The position numbers and the translations under genes were made by a program. Source: Enterobacteria phage HK225. From it: a stretch of 45,366 bases of DNA. This document shows, one piece after another, positions 15,542-34,105 of this stretch (positions within the stretch are counted from its first letter, which is position 1; each line of letters starts with the position of its first letter). Below the pieces are notes generated by a model. It searched no databases, had not been told where the DNA came from, and saw only the letters and a list, made by a program, of their open reading frames with translations. Location: the sequence record NC_019717.1; one strand, given 5' to 3'.

Positions 15542-18500
15542 ATGGCTATATCTACTCCGATTAGAGGCCGCAAGGGCGGCAGCTCAAGTTCCCGCACCCC
15601 GACTGAACAACCAGACGATCTCCAGTCCGTAGCGAAGGCCAAAATTCTTGTTGCGCTGGGAGAGGGGGAATTTGCAGGACAGTTGACGGCGAAGGATATC
15701 TATCTCGATGGAACTCCACTGGAGAATGCGGACGGATCGCAAAACTTCAGCGGCGTGGCGTGGGAATTTCGCCCAGGGACTCAGGCACAAAAATACATTC
15801 AGGGTATCCCCGGTACCGAAAATGAAATCAGCGTGGGCACCGAAGTGTCAAGCACCACCGGCTGGACACATACCTTTACCAACACGCAACTGTCAGCCGT
15901 TCGCCTGCGCCTCAAGTGGCCATCGCTTTTTAAACAGGAGGATGATGGCGATCTGGTTGGCTATTCAATTAACTACGCTATTGATCTGCAGACCGATGGC
16001 GGCACCTGGCAGACGGTACTTAATACCAGCGTAACCGGCAAGACAACTTCCGGCTACGAACGCAGCCATCGTATCGATTTACCACAGGCAGGCAGTACAT
16101 GGACGGTGCGCCTGCGTAAGCTCACGGCGGATGCCAACAGCGCGAAAATTGGCGACACGATGACGCTGCAGAGCTACACAGAGGTCATTGACGCCAAACT
16201 GCGTTATCCAAACACCGCGCTGTTGTACATCGAATTCGACTCAAGCCAGTTTAACGGCTCTATCCCGCAAATATCCTGCGAACCGCGAGGGCGTGTAATC
16301 CGCGTTCCGGATACGTATGACCCGGAGACCCGCACCTATAGCGGCACATGGACGGGGGCGTTTAAGTGGGCGTGGACGGATAATCCAGCCTGGATTTTTT
16401 ACGATCTGGTGGTGAGCGACCGCTTTGGGCTGGGCAATCGCCTGACGGCGGCCAATATTGATAAATGGACGCTTTACCAGGTCGCGCAATATTGCGATCA
16501 GCCGGTTCCTGATGGTAAAGGCGGTAGCGGCACTGAGCCTCGCTATACCTGCAACGTGTATGTGCAGGAGAGGAATGACGCCTATACCGTGTTACGAGAT
16601 TTTGCGGCGATATTCCGGGGCATGACTTACTGGGGTGGCGATCAAATCGTTGCGCTGGCGGATATGCCCCGCGATGTGGATTACAGCTACACGCGTGCAA
16701 ACGTGGTTAATGGGCGCTTTACCTATTCGGGCAGCACCACGAAAACCCGCTATACCACAGCACTGGTTTCCTGGTCCGATCCGGGTAATGCCTACGCGGA
16801 TGCGATGGAGCCTGTATTTGAGCAGGATCTCGTTGCTCGCTTTGGCACAAATCAGCTCGAAATGACAGCCATTGGTTGTACCAGACAGTCAGAAGCGAAC
16901 CGAAAGGGGCGCTGGGGTATTCTCACCAACAACAAGGATCGCGTTGTTTCGTTCGATGTCGGGCTGGACGGAAACATACCGCAGCCTGGCTATATCATCG
17001 CTGTGGCAGACGAGCTGCTTTCCGGAAAGGTGATGGGAGGGCGTATCAGCGCGGTTAATGGTCGCGTTATCACGCTTGATCGTGATTCCGCAGCCGTTGC
17101 CGGAAGCCGTCTTATGGTTAACCTGCCGTCTGGCGCATCGCAGAGCAGGACGATACAGAGCGTAAACGGTCGGGCTGTCACCGTGACCACGGCATACAGC
17201 GAAACACCGGCAGTCGAATCGGTATGGATTGTCGAATCCGACGAGCTTTATGCACAGCAATATCGTGTTATCAGCGTCGCTGATAATAACGACGGCACGT
17301 TTTCGATTACTGGTGCTTTTCACGATCCGGATAAGTATGCCCGTATCGATACCGGCGCCATCATCGACCAGCGGCCAATAAGTGTAATTCCGCCCGGTAA
17401 TCAGTCCCCGCCAGCCAACATCACGATCAGTTCGTTTTCGGTTGTTCAGCAGAATATCAGCGTCGAAACGATGCGCGTGAGCTGGGACCAGGCGCAGAAC
17501 GCTATCGCCTATGAGGGGCAGTGGCGCCGCAACGACGGAAACTGGGTGAACATGCCTCGCAGCTCCACCACGTCATTTGACGTCCCGGGGATTTATGCCG
17601 GGCGCTACCTGGTGCGCGTGCGCGCAATTAATGCCGCTGAAATTTCCTCAGGATGGGGATATTCAGAAGAGAAGACACTGACCGGCAAAGTAGGTAATCC
17701 GCCTAAGCCAGTAGGATTCACAGCCACGGGCATTAACTGGGGGATTCGTCTTAACTGGGGTTTCCCGGCAAACACCGGCGATACGCTAAAAACGGAAATT
17801 CAGTACACTGCCAACAGTGACTTTTCAGATCCACTCTTGCTCTCAGACGTGCCTTATCCATCTGCGGAATACACCCAGCTCGGCCTTAAAGCAGGGCAGG
17901 AATTCTGGTACCGCGCGCAGCTGGTCGACAGAACGGGTAACGAGTCCGGGTATACCGACTGGATCAGGGGGATGTCTAACGATAACGCCGATGATTATTT
18001 GGGCGATATCGCAGATGATTTCCTAACCTCTGCAGACGGAGAACGCCTGACTGGTGACATCGATACCAACATTGAGGGAATACTGCAGAACGCCCTGGCG
18101 AACCATGGAACTGTTGAGCACCAGTGGGCACAATACGGAGAAGTGCGTGCCGATATTCTGGTGGTTAAAACGACGATTGCTGAAGTTGATAATGCAATGG
18201 CCGAACTTTCGACGCAGGTGCAGGCGCAGATTGAGGATGTTACCGCTTCCCTGGAAGACAAGCTTACAGCTGTCGTAGATGCCTCCGGTGCTTCGGCAAT
18301 CCACACCCTCAAAACGGGCGTGAGAATAAACGGGGTGATTTATAACGCCGGGATGTCTATTGCAGTGCTTGCAGAGGCAGGGAAGCCGGTAGTCACGCGG
18401 GTTGGTTTCAACGCTAACCAGTTCGTGCTGATGAGCGGCAGTGGTGATACCCAGTATTCGCCGTTCGCGGTGGTAAACGGTCAGGTGTTTATCAGCTCAG

Positions 18501-18730
18501 CGTTTATTCAGGATGGCACGATCACCAATACCAAAATCGGTAACTTTATCCAGTCGAACAATTATGTTGCCGGCTCTGTTGGCTGGAAACTGGATAAGTC
18601 CGGGACGTTTGAGAACTACGGTTCGACAGCTGGGGAGGGAGCCATGAAGCAGACCAACCAGACAATCAGCGTCAAGGATGGCAACAACGTTCTGAGAGTG
18701 CAGGTTGGCCGATTAACGGGGGTGTTCTGA
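15542..18730 (+). CDS. J: central tail fibre / host specificity protein J
   Basis: 1062-aa ORF after I; lambda gpJ-like size (1132 aa) and position. Confidence 0.9.
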   Translation: MAISTPIRGRKGGSSSSRTPTEQPDDLQSVAKAKILVALGEGEFAGQLTAKDIYLDGTPLENADGSQNFSGVAWEFRPGTQAQKYIQGIPGTENEISVGTEVSSTTGWTHTFTNTQLSAVRLRLKWPSLFKQEDDGDLVGYSINYAIDLQTDGGTWQTVLNTSVTGKTTSGYERSHRIDLPQAGSTWTVRLRKLTADANSAKIGDTMTLQSYTEVIDAKLRYPNTALLYIEFDSSQFNGSIPQISCEPRGRVIRVPDTYDPETRTYSGTWTGAFKWAWTDNPAWIFYDLVVSDRFGLGNRLTAANIDKWTLYQVAQYCDQPVPDGKGGSGTEPRYTCNVYVQERNDAYTVLRDFAAIFRGMTYWGGDQIVALADMPRDVDYSYTRANVVNGRFTYSGSTTKTRYTTALVSWSDPGNAYADAMEPVFEQDLVARFGTNQLEMTAIGCTRQSEANRKGRWGILTNNKDRVVSFDVGLDGNIPQPGYIIAVADELLSGKVMGGRISAVNGRVITLDRDSAAVAGSRLMVNLPSGASQSRTIQSVNGRAVTVTTAYSETPAVESVWIVESDELYAQQYRVISVADNNDGTFSITGAFHDPDKYARIDTGAIIDQRPISVIPPGNQSPPANITISSFSVVQQNISVETMRVSWDQAQNAIAYEGQWRRNDGNWVNMPRSSTTSFDVPGIYAGRYLVRVRAINAAEISSGWGYSEEKTLTGKVGNPPKPVGFTATGINWGIRLNWGFPANTGDTLKTEIQYTANSDFSDPLLLSDVPYPSAEYTQLGLKAGQEFWYRAQLVDRTGNESGYTDWIRGMSNDNADDYLGDIADDFLTSADGERLTGDIDTNIEGILQNALANHGTVEHQWAQYGEVRADILVVKTTIAEVDNAMAELSTQVQAQIEDVTASLEDKLTAVVDASGASAIHTLKTGVRINGVIYNAGMSIAVLAEAGKPVVTRVGFNANQFVLMSGSGDTQYSPFAVVNGQVFISSAFIQDGTITNTKIGNFIQSNNYVAGSVGWKLDKSGTFENYGSTAGEGAMKQTNQTISVKDGNNVLRVQVGRLTGVF

Positions 18731-18731
18731 T

Positions 18732-19034
18732 ATGGCTTATGGAATACAGACCTGGGATGCTTCGGGAAACCCCAACAACTACGGAATCAAGCCCGTTTCC
18801 GTTGTTGGACGTATACAACTTGCCGCCGGACAAAACTCCGGCAGCTGGTCTTTCACTGTACCCTCAGGAATGAAGGTCGGTTTTGCGCTCTCACTTGATG
18901 AAGGAGGTAACAGCGTAGGGAGGAGCATTGTCGCGTCAGGGAACACAATAACCGTAACCGCAGCCTCTTCTGTGGGCCTGGGTAATTACCCGGCCTCTAA
19001 ATGTGAGGTGGTCGTTTTCATGGAGAAAGCATAA
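18732..19034 (+). CDS. hypothetical protein (tail-tip associated, coupled to J)
   Basis: 100-aa ORF starting 2 nt after the J stop; shares WDASG and SGSW motifs with the next ORF. Confidence 0.5.
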   Translation: MAYGIQTWDASGNPNNYGIKPVSVVGRIQLAAGQNSGSWSFTVPSGMKVGFALSLDEGGNSVGRSIVASGNTITVTAASSVGLGNYPASKCEVVVFMEKA

Positions 19035-19708
19035 TGGCCGAATTTGGCGCGATGATATTAATGGATAACGGGAATCCCTTTGTAACGCCACAATCAACGC
19101 CTTTCTGTCTTTACGGGAAGTATACCTTCAATTCATCCGCGAATGGCAGTTCTCAGCAGGTTGCTCAAAATATCGCTTTAAACGCTGATTACCCAGTGAT
19201 GGTTTTTATCAAAACCACCAATACAGCACAGCCCACTCCGGTTATGTCTTACAGGAACGGCGGTAATGTGTATGTTGTTGGTGTTAATCCCTACAACCAA
19301 AGTTTCACTTTAACGGCGTACGTTTTTGCCATATTCCCGCAGATATTACCGAAATGGGGTTTGGCAATATGGGATGCGAGCGGAAAGCTTGTGTTAACTA
19401 ATGAGTCCCGTGTGCTATCAGACCTGCAGACGGTTGGCACGCCTGGTGCAAACGGCGGGATAAATATTGACCAGACGCTGAGCGGGTCATGGGCCGTTGC
19501 ACCTGCTCAGTTGGGTCAGACCATCATTGTGAATAATTCAACCCAGCCTCCGACTATCTACACGATAAATGCTTATTCTTCATGCAGGTTTGACGGGGCC
19601 AATACGAGGATAAACGCAGGGGGGACCTCCACTGGGACAGGTTCACCTGTAGGGGGAACGAATACTGGCATTTCATTAACCGCCATAAATACAGCGGCCT
19701 ATGATTGA
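19034..19708 (+). CDS. hypothetical protein with two copies of the WDASG-type module
   Basis: 224-aa ORF, start overlaps the previous stop; Gly/Thr-rich C-terminus. Confidence 0.5.
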   Translation: MAEFGAMILMDNGNPFVTPQSTPFCLYGKYTFNSSANGSSQQVAQNIALNADYPVMVFIKTTNTAQPTPVMSYRNGGNVYVVGVNPYNQSFTLTAYVFAIFPQILPKWGLAIWDASGKLVLTNESRVLSDLQTVGTPGANGGINIDQTLSGSWAVAPAQLGQTIIVNNSTQPPTIYTINAYSSCRFDGANTRINAGGTSTGTGSPVGGTNTGISLTAINTAAYD

Positions 19709-19730
19709 TTGATCGTTTTTAGCGATCAAT
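19708..19730. promoter_or_regulatory. palindrome ATTGATCG-N7-CGATCAAT upstream of the lipoprotein gene
   Basis: perfect 8-bp inverted repeat in an AT-rich intergenic region. Confidence 0.3.
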
Positions 19731-19819
19731 AACATAATATTGATCTATCCAATCAATTATACCCACCAGAATTGTATTGGTATCGTCTAAGATACTGAAT
19801 TCCTCTGGATACTATCAAA

Positions 19820-20053
19820 ATGAGAAAACTGATTATCTGCATGGCAGGCGCTGTCATGCTTACAGGATGCGCTGGCGTAATTGAGAAACAGGAACCAGTT
19901 TGCAGCGGCACTGCAATCGTTGGCGGTCAGGAAACTACGGTTCAGATTTACGGTGTGCGTAAACAAAACAACCAGACGCAGTACCGGGCTGGATATCCTT
20001 TCAGCTGGCGCTGGGTAAGTGCGAATACATTTACCGAAACAACCTGCAAATAA
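19820..20053 (+). CDS. small lipoprotein, candidate Cor-like superinfection exclusion protein
   Basis: 77 aa; signal peptide with lipobox LTGC; own AT-rich upstream region and terminator; sits in the lom/cor slot between J and stf. Confidence 0.5.
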   Translation: MRKLIICMAGAVMLTGCAGVIEKQEPVCSGTAIVGGQETTVQIYGVRKQNNQTQYRAGYPFSWRWVSANTFTETTCK

Positions 20054-20074
20054 CCCACTACGCTTAAACATAAA

Positions 20075-20096
20075 CCTCGCTCCGGCGGGGTTTTTT
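20075..20096 (+). terminator. intrinsic terminator after the lipoprotein gene
   Basis: CCTCGC-tccg-GCGGGG stem followed by TTTTTT. Confidence 0.65.
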
Positions 20097-20116
20097 ATTG
20101 CCCGAAAGGAGCGCAT

Positions 20117-20977
20117 ATGTCTGCAGGAACTATCACCCTGACAAACGGGTCCGCTGTTGTTGGCGGTGCCGGAACCTCATTCGCAACCGAACTCGCCGGA
20201 GGTGATTTCATTGTTTCGACTGTGGGCGGTGTGCCCTACACGCTGCCGGTGAAAACGGTCGACAATAATACCCAGGTGACGCTGGTCAGCAACTTCACCG
20301 GGCCAACACAATCCGGCGCGGCCTGGTCAGCTGTGCCACGCGTGGCGCTGAACATGGTCACTGCCGCGCTGGTGGCGCAAAGTGCCGAAGCACTACGTGG
20401 TTTGAATTACGATAAACAGAACTGGCAGCAGGTTTACAGCGCCGCCGGAAACATCACAGTGAAGTTGCCAGACGGCACCACTTTCACCGGCCCATCATGG
20501 AAATATCTGTCTGACAATATGGCAACCAAGAGCGGTGGTGCAGTACCCGTTAACCAGGGAGGGACCGGGGCGACAACCGGAAACGCCGCGCTGTCCAATC
20601 TGGGTATCACCTATGTCAGGTCAGGAACAAACTACAGCGTGATAAAAATTGGCGATATTTATCAAATGGATTTCCTCATAGGTGGCGGCATCGCAATAGG
20701 GGCGTATAACCCTTCGGTAGTGGGAGGTATTGCGTATTACACGCACTACTATAAATTACCCCTGCCGATGGCATTACCAAACGGCGTTATAACTGCCATT
20801 GCGTCCATTTCGGGTGACAGATTTGGAAATCAATACCCCGGATACAATGCTGACGTTAAAGTATCCAGAGATAAAGATGATGGCAGTGGGCTATTAACAA
20901 CATATTTAACCGTCAGCGTTAAAACTCCTCAGACAGGCTGGACCCCTTATTTTCATATAAGAGTGGTGGGGTATTGA
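20117..20977 (+). CDS. stf: side tail fibre protein (short)
   Basis: 286-aa ORF, Gly/Thr-rich N-terminus MSAGTITLTNGSAVVGGAGTSF typical of enterobacterial tail fibres; immediately followed by a tail fibre assembly gene. Confidence 0.6.
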   Translation: MSAGTITLTNGSAVVGGAGTSFATELAGGDFIVSTVGGVPYTLPVKTVDNNTQVTLVSNFTGPTQSGAAWSAVPRVALNMVTAALVAQSAEALRGLNYDKQNWQQVYSAAGNITVKLPDGTTFTGPSWKYLSDNMATKSGGAVPVNQGGTGATTGNAALSNLGITYVRSGTNYSVIKIGDIYQMDFLIGGGIAIGAYNPSVVGGIAYYTHYYKLPLPMALPNGVITAIASISGDRFGNQYPGYNADVKVSRDKDDGSGLLTTYLTVSVKTPQTGWTPYFHIRVVGY

Positions 20978-20978
20978 T

Positions 20979-21392
20979 ATGAAATATTTTTACAGCATCA
21001 GCACGCAGGGATTTTACCTCGATAACGGTATGCTGGATGCGTATAAAGCGGCTGGCTCACTACCTGCGGACTTGCAAGAGATGAGCGAGGCTGACTATCT
21101 GGCGTTTTTTAATCCTCCCGATGGATTCGCGGGCATATTTGACGAGAAAGGACCGCGTATTGAACAACTGCCAGAACTGGACCCGCTGGCGATAGCAGAA
21201 AATCAACGGCGGCTGTTGCTGTCAGAAATCGCTCCGACTATTTCTGTATGGCAGACAAAAATCCTGGTGGGCATGAAACTGAGTGATTCAGAAACCGCAG
21301 CCCTGCATGCCTGGTTGAGTTACAGTGATGCGCTGAACGCGCTGGATATCACCGTGCCAGATATTCAGTGGCCTGAAAAACCCGCAGCGTGA
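20979..21392 (+). CDS. tfa: tail fibre assembly protein
   Basis: 137-aa ORF 1 nt after stf; MKYFYS...GFYLD N-terminus typical of Tfa chaperones. Confidence 0.7.
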   Translation: MKYFYSISTQGFYLDNGMLDAYKAAGSLPADLQEMSEADYLAFFNPPDGFAGIFDEKGPRIEQLPELDPLAIAENQRRLLLSEIAPTISVWQTKILVGMKLSDSETAALHAWLSYSDALNALDITVPDIQWPEKPAA

Positions 21393-21407
21393 TGTGATTT
21401 TCATTAA

Positions 21408-21433
21408 CCGGGCAGAAAAGGATGACTGCCCGG
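21408..21433. terminator. hairpin between convergent tfa and dinI (possible bidirectional terminator)
   Basis: CCGGGCAG-N10-CTGCCCGG inverted repeat. Confidence 0.35.
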
Positions 21434-21449
21434 TGATGTGAATATGTAA

Positions 21450-21689
21450 TTAATCAGCAACCAGCCACATGTCAGATTCTTCAAACATCTCTTCAAGCAT
21501 ACGATTAAGCCGTTCTTTCTCTGTTTTCGTGCAGTTGCTGTTTAGCGCGTTCGCCTGCATCGGCTTTACCTTCACTTCGGCACCAGGGAAAATCTGGTGC
21601 ACCCGCTTCGTCAGTTCGGCCAGAATGATCTCCCTGGCCCCTTCGAGCCCCTCAACATTTCGCTTGTCATAAACCAGTTCAACAAACAT
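21450..21689 (-). CDS. dinI: DinI-like SOS-induced protein
   Basis: ATG at 21689 is preceded by AAGAGGA; 79-aa product aligns with E. coli DinI (ELTKRVHQIFPG, EESDMWLVAD); the upstream part of the 208-aa track ORF is rejected. Confidence 0.75.
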   Translation of the reverse strand: MFVELVYDKRNVEGLEGAREIILAELTKRVHQIFPGAEVKVKPMQANALNSNCTKTEKERLNRMLEEMFEESDMWLVAD

Positions 21690-21745
21690 ACCGATCCTCT
21701 TATAAGTGAAAACTGCCTGTGCTTGATCTGTTTTCATAAAAATAC

Positions 21746-21765
21746 TACTGTATATACATACAGTC
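21746..21765. promoter_or_regulatory. LexA box (SOS operator)
   Basis: TACTGTATATACATACAGTC matches CTGT-N8-ACAG; lies between dinI (-) and the divergent ORF at 21789 (+). Confidence 0.8.
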
Positions 21766-21788
21766 AATGAGCGAGTGAGGGTGCATTT

Positions 21789-22088
21789 ATGCCTCGTCAA
21801 CCGGATATTCGTGCTGCTTTTATTGCGGCCATACAGCAAAACCCGAAGGGCTATCTCTGTCTGCATACAGACAAGTTCATCGCTGAACTGCAGGAGAGGA
21901 ACTGGCATTTCAGTCAGGCGGATGCAAATACATGGATCGAGCGATACCAGCCGGACTTCGCCGATAAGACGACAAACGAAAGCGAGAACCGGTACTGGAT
22001 CCTGCGTAACATGGGGAGGGTTCTGAGGAGTTATCTTGCGATGCGCTATAGGTTTGCCCCATCCCTCCCAAACCAACCTTTTTTATAA
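21789..22088 (+). CDS. hypothetical protein, divergent from dinI
   Basis: 99-aa ORF with GAGG-type SD; begins 24 nt after the LexA box. Confidence 0.45.
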   Translation: MPRQPDIRAAFIAAIQQNPKGYLCLHTDKFIAELQERNWHFSQADANTWIERYQPDFADKTTNESENRYWILRNMGRVLRSYLAMRYRFAPSLPNQPFL

Positions 22089-22147
22089 CCATCAAAAATC
22101 TGGTGATGCTTCGCCGTTTCTCCTGTTTTCATAACAGGAGAAATCCC

Positions 22148-22696
22148 ATGATTTACGGTTATGCCCGAGTATCAACAAACCACCAGGACACTGAATTGCA
22201 ACTAACGGCGCTCAAGTCAGCGGGTTGTGAGAAAATTTTTGAAGAGCATGCCAGCGGGAGGAAATCGAATCGGCCGGTTCTAAAACGGCTGATCGCCACT
22301 ATGCAGCCGGGGGATGAACTGGTGGTCTGGAAGCTGGACAGGATAGGCCGCAACGTTCTGCATGCGCTGTTGATGTTCCAGCAGTTACAGGAAAAGGGTA
22401 TCAACTTCCGCAGTATTACCGATGGCGTGGATCTCAAAACAGCCAGCGGCCGCTATAACTTTCGTAACATCCTTTCCGCAGCACAATATGAATCTGATCT
22501 TAATAGCGAACGTACCTTAGCAGGGCTGGCCGTAGCCAGGGCAAAAGGGCGAGTTGGTGGTCGCAGGCCTAAGTTCACGGATGAGCAATGGCGGGAAATG
22601 GGGGAGCGGATGGCAATCGGTGAATCACGACAAAGCGTATCAAAAACGTATGGAGTAGGGCTCTCAACTCTGTATAAAAAGTTTCCAGCTAGCTGA
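22148..22696 (+). CDS. serine recombinase, DNA invertase (Hin/Gin/Pin family)
   Basis: ATG at 22148 after AGGAGA; MIYGYARVSTNHQD catalytic-Ser N-terminus, VVWKLDRIGRN, C-terminal HTH ending GLSTLYKKFPAS. Confidence 0.85.
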   Translation: MIYGYARVSTNHQDTELQLTALKSAGCEKIFEEHASGRKSNRPVLKRLIATMQPGDELVVWKLDRIGRNVLHALLMFQQLQEKGINFRSITDGVDLKTASGRYNFRNILSAAQYESDLNSERTLAGLAVARAKGRVGGRRPKFTDEQWREMGERMAIGESRQSVSKTYGVGLSTLYKKFPAS

Positions 22697-22760: not shown

Positions 22761-23015
22761 ATTGGTGGTTGAATTGTCCGTAACTTTTTGATTTAAGTTC
22801 AAATTTCTAATAAATTAGAACACTTTCTTAAATTGTCATTTGGCATATTACGAACAATTCCGCGTAAAAACGTTCTGTTACGCTAAACCCTTATCCAGCA
22901 GGCTTTCAAGGATGTAAACCATAACACTCTGCGAACTAGTGTTACATTGCGTGTAGCTTTGAGTGGGCAACTTTGTGTACACTTTTGTGTACCCAAAAAC
23001 AAAAATGTGTACCCA
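22720..23015. other. candidate attP region with TGTGTAC repeats
   Basis: AT-rich non-coding region upstream of int; TGTGTAC at about 22731, 22975, 22987 and 23007; contiguous phage DNA on both sides. Confidence 0.35.
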
Positions 23016-23019
23016 TTCA

Positions 23020-24213
23020 ATGATCACCGACACAAAGCTCAGGAAGGCGCTCGGCAAGAAAAGAGATGATATCGAGATTATTTCTGATTCGCACGGGCTC
23101 AACGCCAGAATCAGCCAGGCCGGAAAAATATCATTTTTCTATCGGTATCGCTGGGCCGGTAAAGCGGTAAAACTCAATGTTGGTGATTATCCTGCAATGA
23201 GTATCACCCAGGCAAGAGAACGTCGCCAACAATTCAGAAACTGGTTAACTGAGGGACTGGATCCGCGAGAGCAGGTGAAGCTGGATAAGCAGACCCGACA
23301 GGAAGCGATGTCCGTTGCCGAAGCGTTCAATTACTGGATTGAAAGGCACTGTATCGCTAACGGGCTAGTTAAAGTCGATTACTATCGCCAGGTGTTTGAG
23401 AAACATATCGCCGAACCGATGAAGAATGTCAAAGTCGATAACACAGCGAAAATGCACTGGATCAACGTCTTCGATTCTATAGAAAGCAGGGTGATGGCTC
23501 ATTACATGCTTTCGCTGTGCAAACGGGCGTTTAGGTTCTGCGTTAACAGAAGTGTGATCGCCTCAAACCCACTCGAGGGATTACTGCCATCTGATGTCGG
23601 GCAAAAGCCTAAAAAGAGAACTCGCAGGATGGACGATGACGATCTGCGCAAAATCTATCAGTGGTTGAAAAGCCATATGTCGATAGAGTCCGTTTTCCTG
23701 GTGAAATTTATTATGCTTACCGGATGCCGTACGGCTGAGATTCGACTTAGTGAGAGATCATGGTTTCGATTGGATGATAATGAGTGGGTCGTGCCTGCGG
23801 GCAGTTATAAAACTCGGGTACATATTAGAAGGGGACTCTCAGACGCCGCCGTTAACCTGGTCAGAAATCACCTCAAGAAAATAAACACCAATCACCTGGT
23901 GACTTCACAACGTAAAATTGATGGCGGGATCAAAGATTCGCCCGTTCATTCACCTGTGGCATCCAATTACGCCCGTTCTATTTGGAATGGAACAGGTATG
24001 GCAGAGTGGTCGCTTCATGATATGAGGCGGACGATAGCCACAAATCTCTCTGAGTTAGGTTGCCCGCCGCACGTAATTGAAAAGCTGCTCGGGCATCAGA
24101 TGGTGGGGGTTATGGCGCATTACAACCTTCATGACTATATCGATGATCAGAAACACTGGCTCCGCGTTTGGCAGAGCCATCTTGAAGAGATCATCGGAGA
24201 GCCCTTCAGTTAA
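23020..24213 (+). CDS. int: tyrosine integrase (P4-like family)
   Basis: track ORF starts at GTG 22963; [11 protein letters not shown]-terminus is typical of P4-type integrases; catalytic-region motifs HDMRRT and LLGH...HY; start could also be ATG 23005. Confidence 0.85.
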
Positions 24214-24729: not shown

Positions 24730-25842
24730 TCAGGCCACGTATTCCGGTTTCATATCCGCCAGGGTGATGCTGAATTGATCGTGCAGTTCATCGCCTAAGT
24801 GACGCTTTGAAGATGCAAGCATGCGCTCGGCTTCAGCGAACCGTTCGGATGCATGCGGCTCGTCGGGCTGGGGCAGGGATTTAATAGCCTCCTCAACCTT
24901 GTTGCGTGCATCCACTAGGTAATAACGCTTTACGGCTTTGTTTTTCAGCTCGGTGAATAGTGCGGATCCCAGCGTAGCTTTCGCCGTTTCAATGTCGGCA
25001 CGCAGCGATTTGGCGCTATCCACGTCCTGAGCAGATTCGATGCGTTCGCGGAAATCATCGGCAAGAGAGTCGACATTTACCGACGATTCCTGTGCGCTTT
25101 GCGTGGTTGTGACGGTGTCACCTGAGATATCAGCCAGGCTAACGCGTTGCGGCGTTGGGTTGATCTCTTTTTCTGTGCGCTGTTCAATCTCATCAGGGGT
25201 GTACACACCAAGAACAACTGCAGGGCAATACAGGCGCGCCCAGTATTTGAGTGCCAGATAAGCGATCTGCTGTTTCGGGTTTGATACCCAAAGTGGAGAA
25301 TTACGTGTGATTACGCTGGAGAGGAAAACAGGCTCTCCCCAGGTGATATCACTTTCACCGCGAATAACGGCACCTACCCGTACCGACAGTCCTTGTTCAT
25401 CAGCACTTTCCCAACCGCGTACCATTTCTTTCTTGTCGTACGTCCCGCCACCTTTCGCAGGCTTTTTAACGGTTATCTCGCGGCTGCTGGCACATTTCGA
25501 CCAGTCGCCCTCGTACTCATAGTGAAAGCGGCCAACGATGGCGTTTGAGCTGGAGATCACCGCATTAACCAGTTGCGCTTCGTATCCCAGGACACCGTTA
25601 ACCAGGTGCGTCTTTTGCGCCACGGCGTAAGGGTTCATACCCCACTGCATCGCCTGCATGATGATGGCCATGCAGTCTGCCGGATTGCCGCGGAGGTGCT
25701 CAGGCACCGTTACGGCTGCCTGTGCCATCAACCCGGCGACAGACTGAAGCTGGGTTAAAGCCTGCACGTTGAAAATGGCATTGCTGGCTGAGATCGTGTT
25801 TGGAGTCTGCTGTTCAGCGGTTACGATATTCGTGTTTTCCAT
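24730..25842 (-). CDS. recT: RecT-family single-strand annealing protein
   Basis: track ORF has three consecutive Met; the third (25842) has the best SD spacing; core GNPADCMAIIMQAMQWGMNPY resembles RecT. Confidence 0.8.
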   Translation of the reverse strand: MENTNIVTAEQQTPNTISASNAIFNVQALTQLQSVAGLMAQAAVTVPEHLRGNPADCMAIIMQAMQWGMNPYAVAQKTHLVNGVLGYEAQLVNAVISSSNAIVGRFHYEYEGDWSKCASSREITVKKPAKGGGTYDKKEMVRGWESADEQGLSVRVGAVIRGESDITWGEPVFLSSVITRNSPLWVSNPKQQIAYLALKYWARLYCPAVVLGVYTPDEIEQRTEKEINPTPQRVSLADISGDTVTTTQSAQESSVNVDSLADDFRERIESAQDVDSAKSLRADIETAKATLGSALFTELKNKAVKRYYLVDARNKVEEAIKSLPQPDEPHASERFAEAERMLASSKRHLGDELHDQFSITLADMKPEYVA

Positions 25843-25853
25843 CATCATTCCCC

Positions 25854-28800
25854 TTATGCCTGAGTACGCAGCGCTTCAAGGCGGCGCAGGTCGAAGTCGT
25901 TCAGTTCGTCGGTGTAGTCAGCAGTGATTGGCGCTGGCCATTCACCTGTGTCGAATCCGGTTGCGATATTGCGCATCGCTTTGCGGTACTCGAGCATACC
26001 CAGCTCCAGTAGTTCAGCGGATGCCTCGATGATGGCGATCCAGTGGTAGTTCTCGTCTTTGTTGACGAAAATCCAGAAGAACTGATCCAGCGCTGCGGTT
26101 TCGCAGTACATAGCCGCGCTCAGGTGATAATCACGTTCAATAATTTCCCGGTGTAGCCTGGCGCGCAGGCTTTCCTGCTTAACATTCCACATGCTGATGG
26201 TTTTCAGGTCAGCACCGATACGCACGCCGTCTAGGTCGATCTCAAGGTCAGGGCGCACACGAACTTCCAGTCCCGTCTCCTCGTCAAAGCCAAAGTAGCT
26301 CACCTCAACGGCGCGGCTCGGGTGGGTTAGCAGCATGCCTGCGGTCGGGTGCGAGAGCAGTGCTGACTGAATTGCCTGCGCGGTGGCAAGTTGCTGGTGG
26401 GTAACCAGCACTTTCCCTTCCGGGTTGTTGCGCCACGCATCGAGCAGCTCGTCGGCGAACACTGCATCTGGTTTGACTGCCTTCACGGCCTGAATCAGAT
26501 CGGCCTTCGTGCCAGAGACTTTCAGCGGTTGCAGCTTCTGAGCTTCCTGCGCGACCAGGTCAGGATTGATAATCGCAAGTTGTTCGAGTAGTGCGTCGCG
26601 GCTGCCGCTGGTTTTAATCTGCGCTGGCAGGGTGGCGTTGTACTCTTTGATGCACGCCTTCATTGCTGTTGCTGTCTTCTTCTGATCTGCATCGATACGT
26701 TGGAATTCAGCTGGCAGCGCCATATAGTTCTGCGCCGTTTCATCCAGGCTAGCGCCCAGCGGCACCAGCGCTGGCAGGGTGGCGTTGTATTCATCCAGCA
26801 AAGCTTTGATATCGTCTGCGCTCAGTTGCGCTGGCAGGCTGGCGTTGTACTCATCAATAAACGCGCGGATCGTTGCCGTGGTGGTAAATGCACCTTCCGG
26901 AATTACGGGTTCAACGCTAAATTCTTCATCGAGCTGTTCTGGCTGCAACGCCAGCGCATGTACCAGGTTTCCCATGTCCAGCACTGAGGAGCGCTCTTTG
27001 ACGATGGTTTTCTCAACGTGGCGCGCATTGAAGTACATCAGCGAAACGCGCGCATCTTTTACCTGGGTGGAACTGATGCCGTTGGCAGCGTGGTAAACCT
27101 CGTTCGGCAGACCTTCATAGCGCCCAGGCTCGAAGTAATCGGGGTAAAAAACAGCTGGTTCGTCAGATTGCGCTTCTGGCTCGGTTTGTGCTGCAACTGG
27201 TTCGGTTTGGCTTACAGAATCGCTATTTTTGGCGACAGAATCCGTATTCTGGTTTACATCGTCCTTCTGGCTGGTATCTGACTCTTCACCAGACTCCAGA
27301 CTGCTTTCGCCTGGCTGTACTTCATCACCAACATTTTTTTCATCACTGACAGTTTCTTGAACCTGCACATTGCTGGTGGTTTCCGTAGCCTGTTTCGTGC
27401 CATGAGTTGCTGAGTTCTGCAGTAAAGCCGTAACGTCGAATATTCCGTTGCCGACATTTTTAACCAGTTCTTGTTCGACTTTCTGCGGTTGTGCTGCCGC
27501 TTCCTCTGCGCGGCGGCGTGCTCCTTCTTCACGCACGCGTTGCAGGTTCTCTTCGTGAGTGCAGAAGGATTTGCGCGGAGACTCCTTACCTTCAGGTTGG
27601 GGAATTTCCTGTGCTGCGGGTTCAGCCTCATGCAACGGCAATAACTCGACCGCGGAATTGAACGCGGCTGTCATGGTCTGGTTAACAAATTCCAGGTGAG
27701 CGACAGGAGTTAAATGAATATTTTCCGGTGCGATACGTACCAGGTTAAAAATAGCCGTGCGGTTAACACCCAGAACGCCTGGCTGATTGCGCAGGATGTT
27801 GCTCCATGATTTCCATGGTTCTTCTTTTTTGGTCACGATTTCTTTAGCGCGACGAAGAATGCTGCCCGGGATCTCGAAGTGGTTGAAGTCCATAGGCAGA
27901 AGGGCACACGCAATCTCTAAATCGAGAGTGTCCAGTGTGTGGTGTGCGTCAGGTCCACGGTCAGTGACGTAACCGCCGTCGGCATTAGTGCCGGAATCAG
28001 TACGCTGCACACTACTGATGCGATTACCGGCGGCCCATTCGCGAACGAGGATACCGCGGTCGATGTGATCTGTAGCGAACCACAATTTCAAAAACTGGAT
28101 TAAGGTTGCGAGTTCAGGGATTTTTCCATCGACAGGGAAGACTTTCTTAACGGCATTCACGACTTTATGAATATCGTGCTCAATGGCTTTTTTGAATGCT
28201 TCCACATTCTCAGCTGCCAGCAGCAGGTTCTGGACGTACGCGTCATCGGTGTCCATCTCAAGGCGGACAATCTCATTTTTCTGCCCTGCGTCGATGTGAT
28301 AGAGATATTCACCATCACCGATGAACTGAGCCAGTACGCGCTGGCGGAATGGCAGGGTGGCAACAACGATCAGGTTCGGTTGCTGTGTCTGCTGGGATTG
28401 CTCTTCGGTATCGACTTCACCATCAACGACGCCACCTTCTGCCCGGCCGTTCTCGTCGGTCTGGATACCGTCCTCAACAGTGAGATCTTGACCCGTTGTA
28501 ACGTCAGCAGCGTTGCTGGTTTCAGTTTTGAGCAACTGCAACTTACCACTGCGCCAGTCTTCTACCAGTTGATTGCGGTCACCGGCATCGGTGTTCACCC
28601 AGTCAGACATGAATGCAGCGATCAATCTTGGTTCGTGCTCTTCGTCTGGTGTGAAAATGTCCTTAACCGCCCGAATCATTTTCCACTCAGCATTCAGGCT
28701 GAGTTTGGCGGTCGCGGGCACATCGTTCCTTGCCACAAGCAGGCTATGGAGATATGTATTGCCTTCATCCAGTGACATTTCGCTGGCAGCCAACTGCTGC

Positions 28801-29243
28801 TCTTTAGTGACGTGGGTTTGGTATTTATCGTTCATCAGATGGACGGCAAAGCGGACCGCTGGAGTACGGTTTTCAACCGGGACAATTTCGGACGCAGTCG
28901 CATCTTCAACGATTACGGTCGGAGTAGGTGTGTAGGGGGCGTCAACGGAACCAGTAGACACACCAGCGGCTTTTGGCAGCCAGGTGCGCCCATCGTCCTG
29001 AAGCTCGTAGCGATCACACCAGGTAAAATCAACTTCACCTTCTTTCGGCAGGCCGTCGACAACTGGGAAATCAGTGCGAATCGGTTTGGCGTAGTCCTTA
29101 CCCCGACCTGTTTCGATACCTGCATCTTCCAGCGCAACATCCAGCATCAGATTGGCGCGAGCCTCGGTTTTAGCAGTGAACCAGACCACTGCATCTTGCT
29201 TTCCGGATTTCTGAGTGGCTTTAACCACATTAAAGAATTCCAT
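25854..29243 (-). CDS. recE: RecE-like exonuclease VIII with long N-terminal extension
   Basis: 1129-aa ORF with GAGGA SD, directly upstream of recT; acidic low-complexity middle; C-terminal region consistent with a RecE-type nuclease domain; internal triplicated EYNATLPA module. Confidence 0.7.
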   Translation of the reverse strand: MEFFNVVKATQKSGKQDAVVWFTAKTEARANLMLDVALEDAGIETGRGKDYAKPIRTDFPVVDGLPKEGEVDFTWCDRYELQDDGRTWLPKAAGVSTGSVDAPYTPTPTVIVEDATASEIVPVENRTPAVRFAVHLMNDKYQTHVTKEQQLAASEMSLDEGNTYLHSLLVARNDVPATAKLSLNAEWKMIRAVKDIFTPDEEHEPRLIAAFMSDWVNTDAGDRNQLVEDWRSGKLQLLKTETSNAADVTTGQDLTVEDGIQTDENGRAEGGVVDGEVDTEEQSQQTQQPNLIVVATLPFRQRVLAQFIGDGEYLYHIDAGQKNEIVRLEMDTDDAYVQNLLLAAENVEAFKKAIEHDIHKVVNAVKKVFPVDGKIPELATLIQFLKLWFATDHIDRGILVREWAAGNRISSVQRTDSGTNADGGYVTDRGPDAHHTLDTLDLEIACALLPMDFNHFEIPGSILRRAKEIVTKKEEPWKSWSNILRNQPGVLGVNRTAIFNLVRIAPENIHLTPVAHLEFVNQTMTAAFNSAVELLPLHEAEPAAQEIPQPEGKESPRKSFCTHEENLQRVREEGARRRAEEAAAQPQKVEQELVKNVGNGIFDVTALLQNSATHGTKQATETTSNVQVQETVSDEKNVGDEVQPGESSLESGEESDTSQKDDVNQNTDSVAKNSDSVSQTEPVAAQTEPEAQSDEPAVFYPDYFEPGRYEGLPNEVYHAANGISSTQVKDARVSLMYFNARHVEKTIVKERSSVLDMGNLVHALALQPEQLDEEFSVEPVIPEGAFTTTATIRAFIDEYNASLPAQLSADDIKALLDEYNATLPALVPLGASLDETAQNYMALPAEFQRIDADQKKTATAMKACIKEYNATLPAQIKTSGSRDALLEQLAIINPDLVAQEAQKLQPLKVSGTKADLIQAVKAVKPDAVFADELLDAWRNNPEGKVLVTHQQLATAQAIQSALLSHPTAGMLLTHPSRAVEVSYFGFDEETGLEVRVRPDLEIDLDGVRIGADLKTISMWNVKQESLRARLHREIIERDYHLSAAMYCETAALDQFFWIFVNKDENYHWIAIIEASAELLELGMLEYRKAMRNIATGFDTGEWPAPITADYTDELNDFDLRRLEALRTQA
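26621..26852 (-). repeat. three copies of a 25-bp repeat inside recE
   Basis: + strand GCGCTGGCAGG(G/C)TGGCGTTGTA(C/T)TC at 26621, 26768 and 26828. Confidence 0.85.
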
Positions 29244-33281: not shown

Positions 33282-34001
33282 CTACAGCAATACCGAGTAC
33301 CAGAAGAGGCGGCCGATTATCTCAACATCATCAATGTCAGCTTCTTCATCAGGGTAGGCCTCATTGTTGTAGCTGCGGATAATTAGCTTTCCGCCTGGCT
33401 TACGATACAGCTGTTTAATGCGCTTGAGTTGACCATTCCCGCCATCTGTCTGACCAATGGCATACAGTTTCCCATCAACTATGCGTTTGTTGTTCGTATC
33501 GACGGCTACAGTCGTACCATCCGGTATCACAGGTTCCATGCTGTCGCCAGTAGCAGGGAAACACAGGATGCCAGACCCATCTGTGTTAGCTCCAACGCGG
33601 CGGAGGGTTGCCTTTGAGAACCTGAGCTTAAAACCATTGTGATCTTCGCTGTGTACGCGTCCATCGCCACACGCAAATTCAATATCCTTAAGAAATGGCA
33701 CTTCAACCTCATCAACAGGAAGCGGGGTGTCTTTATCCCATGCATCAACAACTCCCCACTCAGACTCTGGCGGGATGTTGCTCTCCAGATCCTTCTTTGG
33801 AGAACCCTCTCCATTTAATAAGCAGTCAAGAGAATAACCGAATTTTTCAGATATTTGTTGCGCCGCCTCACGACTTAACGCGTCTCTTTTTATCCAGTTG
33901 TTGACGGTCTGTGGGCTAGTCGACAAAGCCTCAGCCAAATCCCGCTGCTTCAAGCCTTCCCTTGCCAGTAAAAATTTAATTCTTTCAGAAATGCTACTCA
34001 T
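33282..34001 (-). CDS. cI: CI-like prophage repressor (HTH plus S24 LexA-like peptidase)
   Basis: ATG at 34001 after GGAGGG; N-terminal HTH (LKQRDLAEALSTSPQTVNNW); C-terminal GDSM serine motif and conserved Lys. Confidence 0.85.
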   Translation of the reverse strand: MSSISERIKFLLAREGLKQRDLAEALSTSPQTVNNWIKRDALSREAAQQISEKFGYSLDCLLNGEGSPKKDLESNIPPESEWGVVDAWDKDTPLPVDEVEVPFLKDIEFACGDGRVHSEDHNGFKLRFSKATLRRVGANTDGSGILCFPATGDSMEPVIPDGTTVAVDTNNKRIVDGKLYAIGQTDGGNGQLKRIKQLYRKPGGKLIIRSYNNEAYPDEEADIDDVEIIGRLFWYSVLL

Positions 34002-34029
34002 AAAACCCTCCGCTCCATGCATGGTAAAC

Positions 34030-34105
34030 AACATGTGGATTTTTTCCATCACCATAATGTTGATTTAATCCACATCATGAATTAACATGGTGTTGATTAC
34101 ACATG
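34030..34105. promoter_or_regulatory. OR-like operator region between cI and cro
   Basis: 19-bp near-palindrome ATGTTGATTTAATCCACAT at 34057-34075 plus half-sites ATGTGGATT (34033) and TGTTGATTA (34091). Confidence 0.6.

Follow-up and report, generated by a model that had tools for sequence, protein, structure and literature searches.

Enterobacteria phage HK225 carries cor, the gene of the phage exclusion lipoprotein Cor, after its tail-tip genes

Enterobacteria phage HK225 (NC_019717.1) was analysed over a window of 45,366 nucleotides (nt), the term window meaning here the whole stretch of DNA, in which a small open reading frame (ORF) lies between the tail-tip genes and a side tail fibre gene. 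We conclude with high confidence that this ORF is cor, a phage exclusion (lysogenic conversion) lipoprotein gene, whose product is proposed to be lipidated and to inactivate the ferrichrome transporter FhuA. It is cor itself, encoding the phi80 protein allele at the canonical place, and not a mere relative of Cor. An initial annotation, made from the letters of the DNA without database searches, had recognised a 77-amino-acid (aa) ORF and put it forward as a candidate Cor-type lipoprotein while leaving homology unconfirmed; the ORF is present, and its homology to Cor is now confirmed by a 140.9-bit match to NF047972, by PHROG 1119 and by 100% identity to phi80 Cor.

19820..20053, plus strand: cor coding sequence with its stop codon, for the Cor precursor of 77 aa, assigned from the ORF list, NCBIfam NF047972, PHROG 1119 and identity to phi80 Cor

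The ORF begins with ATG and encodes the protein MRKLIICMAGAVMLTGCAGVIEKQEPVCSGTAIVGGQETTVQIYGVRKQNNQTQYRAGYPFSWRWVSANTFTETTCK. Profile searching, which the initial annotation had put forward as a check, matched Cor families. In NCBIfam, the protein matched the equivalog NF047972 (lamb_exclu_cor, "phage exclusion lipoprotein Cor") with an E-value of 9e-42 and a score far above the curated cut-off of 31 bits, and the match is full-length, with Cor residues 1-76 of 77 lying on model positions 1-76 of 78. It also matched PHROG 1119, "Cor superinfection exclusion protein", with an E-value of 7.1e-37. Pfam contains no Cor model, and the only matches there, to DUF4223 (E 0.028) and MiAMP1 (E 0.036), were below threshold and are regarded as noise.

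When 50,697 phage records were searched with Cor using tblastn, matches were found in 240. The HK225 protein has the same amino-acid sequence (100% identity) as the Cor proteins of phi80 (the founding member), mEp043 and mEp213, and identity falls to 79% for the HK75/HK446/HK544 type, 63% for N15, 60% for ES18 gp32 and ∼37% for T1. At the DNA level, the coding sequence is the same as phi80 cor at every base, and the stretch 19600-20102 is matched in HK140, mEp237, mEp213 and mEp043 at 99.4% identity. Among 5.8 billion proteins searched, homologues of Cor formed 113 clusters, most of them from Escherichia, Enterobacter, Salmonella, Klebsiella, Cronobacter and Rahnella. Given these 113 clusters and the base-for-base agreement with phi80 cor, the ORF is not a chance one. 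The 2.5-kb region 19000-21500 was matched in 50 of 5,426 complete E. coli genomes, and among the records listed, the name given to the matched prophage gene by the Prokaryotic Genome Annotation Pipeline (PGAP) is almost always cor or "phage exclusion lipoprotein Cor". As a finding, the Cor gene is already known and ordinary, and the protein has every feature of the family that can be tested from sequence. Its discovery value is small, as knowledge of cor dates from the 1980s-90s and today's annotation pipelines assign the name automatically. An antisense ORF of 109 aa with an ATG start (19787-20116, minus strand) spans all of cor; it has no family match and was taken as most likely spurious.

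The precursor divides into a signal peptide and a mature domain.

19820..19867, plus strand: lipoprotein signal peptide (residues 1-16), ending in LTG, which together with the next codon makes up the lipobox LTGC (rule-based check; phi80 record FN582354)
19868..20050, plus strand: mature lipoprotein, 61 aa, with predicted acylated N-terminal Cys17 (alignment, sequence rules, AlphaFold model)

The signal peptide opens with the n-region MRK, which carries two positive charges, continues with LIICMAGAVM as its hydrophobic core and leads into the lipobox, whose cysteine is residue 17. The lipobox read by the initial annotation held up in a rule-based test, LTGC satisfying a rule of the PROSITE PS51257 type as well as the pattern [LVI][ASTVI][GAS]C, and the phi80 record FN582354 annotates the same 48-nt signal peptide (16 residues) and the same acylated cysteine. 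Because the +2 residue is Ala and there is no Asp-type inner-membrane retention (Lol-avoidance) signal, mature Cor is predicted to be sorted to the outer membrane. In an alignment of 41 of the 113 homologue clusters, Cys17 and Cys28 are nearly invariant and Cys76 is invariant, as are the core residues I43, Y44, Q52, T53, G58, P60 and F61; a disulphide between Cys28 and Cys76 probably forms in the mature protein. Cor proteins of N15, HK022/HK75, mEp167/mEp390, ES18 and T1 are of the same family and length, and share Cys17, Cys28 and Cys76 together with the IYG and QT.Y.AG.PF motifs. The AlphaFold model of Cor, made from the 41-sequence alignment, has a mean predicted local distance difference test (pLDDT) score of 83.6, rising above 90 over residues ∼30-77, and this part is all beta.

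These same features bear on whether the protein could instead belong to the tail tip, as a structural component or as an assembly factor such as a fibre chaperone, a role for which a single observation speaks, the position of the gene between tail-tip and tail-fibre genes. Searches of Pfam, PHROG and NCBIfam found no homology of the 77-aa protein to a structural tail component, whereas the matches to Cor families were strong, and a lipoprotein export signal would take the protein out of the cytoplasm, where tails are assembled. We therefore regard a structural role as extremely improbable.

As an exclusion lipoprotein, Cor would be exported as the 77-aa precursor, receive its lipid at Cys17 and be processed by signal peptidase II, and its 61-aa beta-rich domain would go on to inactivate FhuA, which is TonB-dependent. 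Cells expressing Cor would no longer adsorb FhuA-dependent phages, and in lytic growth the switching off of FhuA would keep progeny from being lost on debris. The physical mechanism is most likely similar to that of Llp from phage T5, with the lipoprotein sitting on the periplasmic face of FhuA, a change transmitted via the barrel and plug, the extracellular loops folding in and the phage-binding site closing. The crystal structure of T5 Llp with FhuA revealed periplasmic binding and an allosteric inward folding of extracellular loops, and its authors suggest that Cor acts alike (PMC9586334). Predicted structures of Cor and Llp have been described as one family (10.64898/2026.03.26.714494), and an AlphaFold 3 (AF3) model of a T1-like Cor places the protein against FhuA from the periplasmic side, with an interface predicted template modelling (ipTM) score of 0.84 (PMC13164509). 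Structures of T5 Llp are held in the PDB as 8A60 (with FhuA) and 7QJF (alone). When the AlphaFold model of Cor was compared with T5 Llp, the two were found to share the fold of the mature domain, with 13% sequence identity over the structural alignment; a Foldseek search did not recover T5 Llp. Llp differs from Cor in being expressed early, by a lytic phage, and in having a solved mechanism, unlike Cor.

FhuA is the receptor for phi80, N15, T1, T5, HK022 and the mEp phages. Inactivation of FhuA or exclusion by phi80 Cor and its relatives has been reported (PMC3594210, PMC11436027, PMC2885432), and phi80 cor blocks T1 (PMC2885432). According to a passage in PMC3594210 that cites Uc-Mass 2004, FhuA is inactivated by the Cor proteins of HK022, N15 and phi80, which also lower the uptake of ferrichrome and confer protection against colicin M. 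Since phi80, N15 and mEp213 are FhuA-dependent (PMC9311878), HK225 most likely uses FhuA as well; the Cor protein of mEp213 is identical to that of HK225. Lysogens of HK225 would be predicted to resist T1, T5, phi80, N15 and similar phages, to resist colicin M, and to take up less ferrichrome.

Three flanking features bear on how the gene may be expressed.

19708..19745, no strand assigned: two overlapping inverted repeats (8-nt arms) with three GATC (Dam) sites at 19711, 19724 and 19742 (repeat scan, folding, shuffles)
19756..19794, plus strand: putative cor promoter, with a weak -35 element ATTATA at 19756-19761, an extended -10 element TGGTATCGT at 19778-19786 and the start-site equivalent at 19794 (phi80 annotation mapped via alignment)
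20072..20102, plus strand: intrinsic (rho-independent) cor terminator with a 9-bp stem, 4-nt loop and T-run (hairpin scan, folding, annotated relatives)

The initial annotation placed the gene in an AT-rich island. This description fits the 111-bp intergenic region 19709-19819, which has a G+C (GC) content of 31.5% as compared to 52.0% for the window, with only 0.38% of 111-bp windows as low, but it does not extend to the whole unit, the cor coding sequence having 48.7% GC. Within this region, phi80, HK75 and N15 all have the TGnTATnnT element of the putative promoter, N15 despite an identity of just ∼50-57% across the cor promoter stretch, and in mEp390 a single mismatch to it is seen (TGATATCTT). 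As compared to phi80, the 111-bp region differs at ∼20 positions, including the annotated -10 (TATCGT here, TATTGT in phi80). A sigma-70 consensus scan chose sites at 19676-19705 and 19709-19738, which were not adopted as they differ from the conserved, phi80-annotated element. Because the scan chose other sites and the -10 of the mEp213 record is a different one, adjoining the ATG, the cor promoter at this position is given as plausible.

Downstream of the gene, the intrinsic terminator noticed in the initial annotation is indeed present. Its stem-loop occupies 20072-20093, is followed by TTTTTTATT and folds at -15.2 kcal/mol. The homologous terminator is annotated as rho-independent in phi80, mEp213 and mEp390, and a terminator feature is also found in the records of HK140, mEp237 and mEp043. 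In an Rfam scan of 19500-20300, no family came close to threshold; the terminator hairpin alone accounts for the weak matches to istR and RsmY. With its own terminator and a probable extended -10 promoter of its own, cor could thus be expressed from a repressed prophage.

Copies of the terminator also occur elsewhere, as the sequence 20072-20104 is 97-100% identical over 33-38 bp to sequences at otherwise unrelated sites. These include an annotated terminator near ES18 gene 20, far from the cor homologue of ES18, and sites in SPN3UB and several Klebsiella phages. The terminator sequence is possibly a shared boundary at which modules recombine.

Upstream, what the initial annotation had called an 8-bp palindrome is present but takes the form of an inverted repeat, whose 8-nt arms, ATTGATCG and CGATCAAT, lie at 19708-19715 and 19723-19730 with a 7-nt spacer between them. 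A second repeat, with arms GATCAATA and TATTGATC at 19724-19731 and 19738-19745, overlaps the first, and the pattern occurs once in the window as compared to 0.04 expected from shuffles. The element starts at the final base of the stop codon of the preceding 224-aa gene. Folding of the region as RNA gives -11.3 kcal/mol (z = -2.84), and its hairpin has no T-run. Of the 159 GATC sites in the 45-kb window, this is the only spot with three within 40 bp. The element is conserved in phi80 and mEp390, while HK75 has one GATC fewer and the N15 version is degenerate. The repeats may form a hairpin that ends or attenuates the late transcript, or may serve as a regulatory site. A more specific proposal, to which we attach little probability, is that 19708-19745 acts as a switch sensitive to Dam methylation, SeqA or a DNA-binding protein, which would couple cor expression to the state of replication or induction, or would set the level of late-operon read-through into cor.

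Given the missing T-run of the upstream hairpin, transcription of the late operon may also continue into cor, and cor lies in the same orientation as the late tail genes and directly after them. The main selected role of Cor might then be lytic rather than lysogenic conversion, the protein being co-transcribed with the late tail genes and disabling FhuA on dying cells and cell debris, which would spare the released progeny from inactivation. Such a role has been proposed for Llp and T1 Cor, and strictly lytic T1-like phages have the same cassette (PMC13164509). However, the Cor proteins of phi80 and N15 were discovered as lysogenic conversion functions, according to a passage in PMC11436027 that cites Vostrov 1996, and cor has kept both a conserved extended -10 element and its own terminator. 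A primarily lytic role is possible but, in our judgement, unlikely to be the main one; it would not exclude expression from the prophage, and both roles are compatible.

Several points weigh against the reading of Cor as an Llp-like lipoprotein expressed from its own promoter. Measured against the consensus, the promoter is weak, and the phi80 and mEp213 records do not agree on which element is its -10. An hhalign comparison of the Cor profile with T5 Llp aligned residues 1-23 only, that is, the signal peptide, and a search of PDB sequences with the Cor profile returned no Llp at E ≤ 10 and nothing relevant. The molecular mechanism of Cor has been described as one that "has not yet been elucidated" (10.64898/2026.03.26.714494), and a passage in PMC9311878 cites a 2018 study in which Cor interacts with OmpA, OmpC, OmpF, OmpW, LamB as well as Slp. 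Several outer-membrane partners are a poor fit to a simple one-to-one, Llp-like model. They would agree better with Cor acting in complex with other outer-membrane proteins (OmpA, OmpC, OmpF and others) that are needed to mask or disable FhuA, as opposed to closing FhuA directly. The summary of Arguijo-Hernandez et al. given in a review (PMC9311878) is cited in support of such complexes, the description of the mechanism as not elucidated leaves room for them, and the mature domain of Cor has no sequence-level similarity to Llp. Set against the shared fold, the docking model and the suggestion of the Llp authors, a mechanism through such complexes appears rather doubtful to us, and direct, Llp-like inactivation of FhuA by Cor remains the preferred account.

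The genes around cor are the following.

15542..18730, plus strand: tail tip protein J, 1062 aa (Pfam FNIII-A_GpJ, Phage-tail_3 and Phage_Tail_Tip)
18732..19034, plus strand: 100-aa gene of the phi80 gp22 type, the first cassette gene after J (94% aa identity to phi80 gp22; PHROG 557, E 3e-36)
19034..19708, plus strand: 224-aa gene of the phi80 gp23 type, the second cassette gene (91% aa identity to phi80 gp23; PHROG 425, E 3e-80)
20117..20977, plus strand: side tail fibre, 286 aa (PHROG 28473 tail fiber, E 6.5e-154)
20979..21392, plus strand: tail fibre assembly protein, 137 aa (Pfam Caudo_TAP, E 7e-19)

The order J, 100-aa gene, 224-aa gene, cor, terminator and side tail fibre equals that of phi80 (gp21, gp22, gp23, cor, stf), N15 (gp21, gp22, gp23, Cor, gp25) and mEp213, in agreement with the location between tail-tip genes and side tail fibre given by the initial annotation. 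The two small genes hold the same position in N15, and in N15, HK75 and mEp390 cor has the same cassette position downstream of J; in ES18, the cor gene is on the strand opposite to its neighbours. A three-gene cassette downstream of J has been described in T1, HK022, N15, ES18 and phi80, all of which use FhuA, while relatives with other receptors lack it (PMC13164509), and the cassette has been linked to FhuA recognition (PMC13164509, PMC8594841). The BASEL study (PMC8594841) and a 2026 preprint (10.64898/2026.04.02.716166) argue that the locus after gpJ encodes receptor-binding proteins and a cognate exclusion lipoprotein, and that the C-terminal tip of J co-varies with this downstream locus; the genes of the locus have been proposed to encode FhuA-binding receptor proteins (PMC13164509, PMC8594841, 10.64898/2026.04.02.716166). 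For annotation, cor and the phi80-type cassette upstream of it predict that HK225 uses FhuA, which this arrangement makes the most likely receptor, in which case Cor would exclude the phage's own kind. The initial annotation had regarded cor as a self-contained moron. Its own terminator and the conserved extended -10 element agree with that, but in a conserved cassette that follows J and is linked to FhuA recognition, cor comes third, and it is therefore not an isolated addition with no relation to the genes around it.

The 100-aa and 224-aa proteins both match PHROG 2427 weakly and have the motif W-D-A-S-G in common (at residues 8-12 and 113-117, respectively), which suggests a common module. 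No N-terminal signal peptide was seen in either, and no Pfam or NCBIfam family was found for them.

With phi80, HK225 shares the 77-aa Cor protein and its coding DNA (both 100%), the signal peptide, the lipobox, the terminator and the upstream gp22/gp23-type genes. The two differ downstream, where the fibre and antisense gene 25 of phi80 are replaced in HK225 by an N15-type fibre, and upstream, where the bulk of HK225 J is N15-type. By sliding identity, J is N15-type up to ∼18520 and its last ∼77 codons are phi80-type; its last 299 aa are 87.6% identical to N15 gp21. The phi80-type block spans 18498-20102 and contains the last ∼77 J codons, both small genes, cor and the terminator, and N15-type sequence resumes from 20072 into the fibre gene, the N-terminal DNA of which is 85.7% identical to N15 gene 25. 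The J tip and the receptor cassette appear to have been exchanged as a single unit, and this local mosaic, in which a phi80-type block is set inside N15-type J and fibre genes, is mildly notable. It fits the proposal that the J tip, the receptor-binding proteins encoded at the locus and the exclusion lipoprotein must match, and would provide a natural example of receptor-recognition and exclusion genes moving together, in agreement with recent matching proposals for these three components.

Elsewhere in the window, a 197-aa serine recombinase (Resolvase N-terminal domain and HTH_7) is encoded at 22103-22696, past the fibre, fibre-assembly and DinI genes, and precedes an AT-rich stretch and a tyrosine integrase (22963-24213). 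Long inverted repeats flanking the fibre genes, as would mark an invertible segment near this recombinase, were looked for and none were found, so that an invertible fibre segment is not evident. The DinI-like domain covers only the C-terminal ∼60 residues of a 208-aa ORF with a TTG start (21450-22076, minus strand), which is probably over-extended because the DinI gene has an annotated length of 240 bp in a related E. coli prophage. A prophage of E. coli ECCRA-119 (NZ_CP029242) is 97.2% identical over 19000-21500 and ends beside yciI and tonB; its fibre gene is annotated as a truncated pseudogene. Further along the window, 24730-29243 on the minus strand encodes a RecE-type exonuclease of 1129 aa (Exonuc_VIII N-terminal and PDDEXK-like C-terminal domains) and then RecT (372 aa), and a CI-type repressor with an S24 peptidase domain is encoded at 33282-34055.
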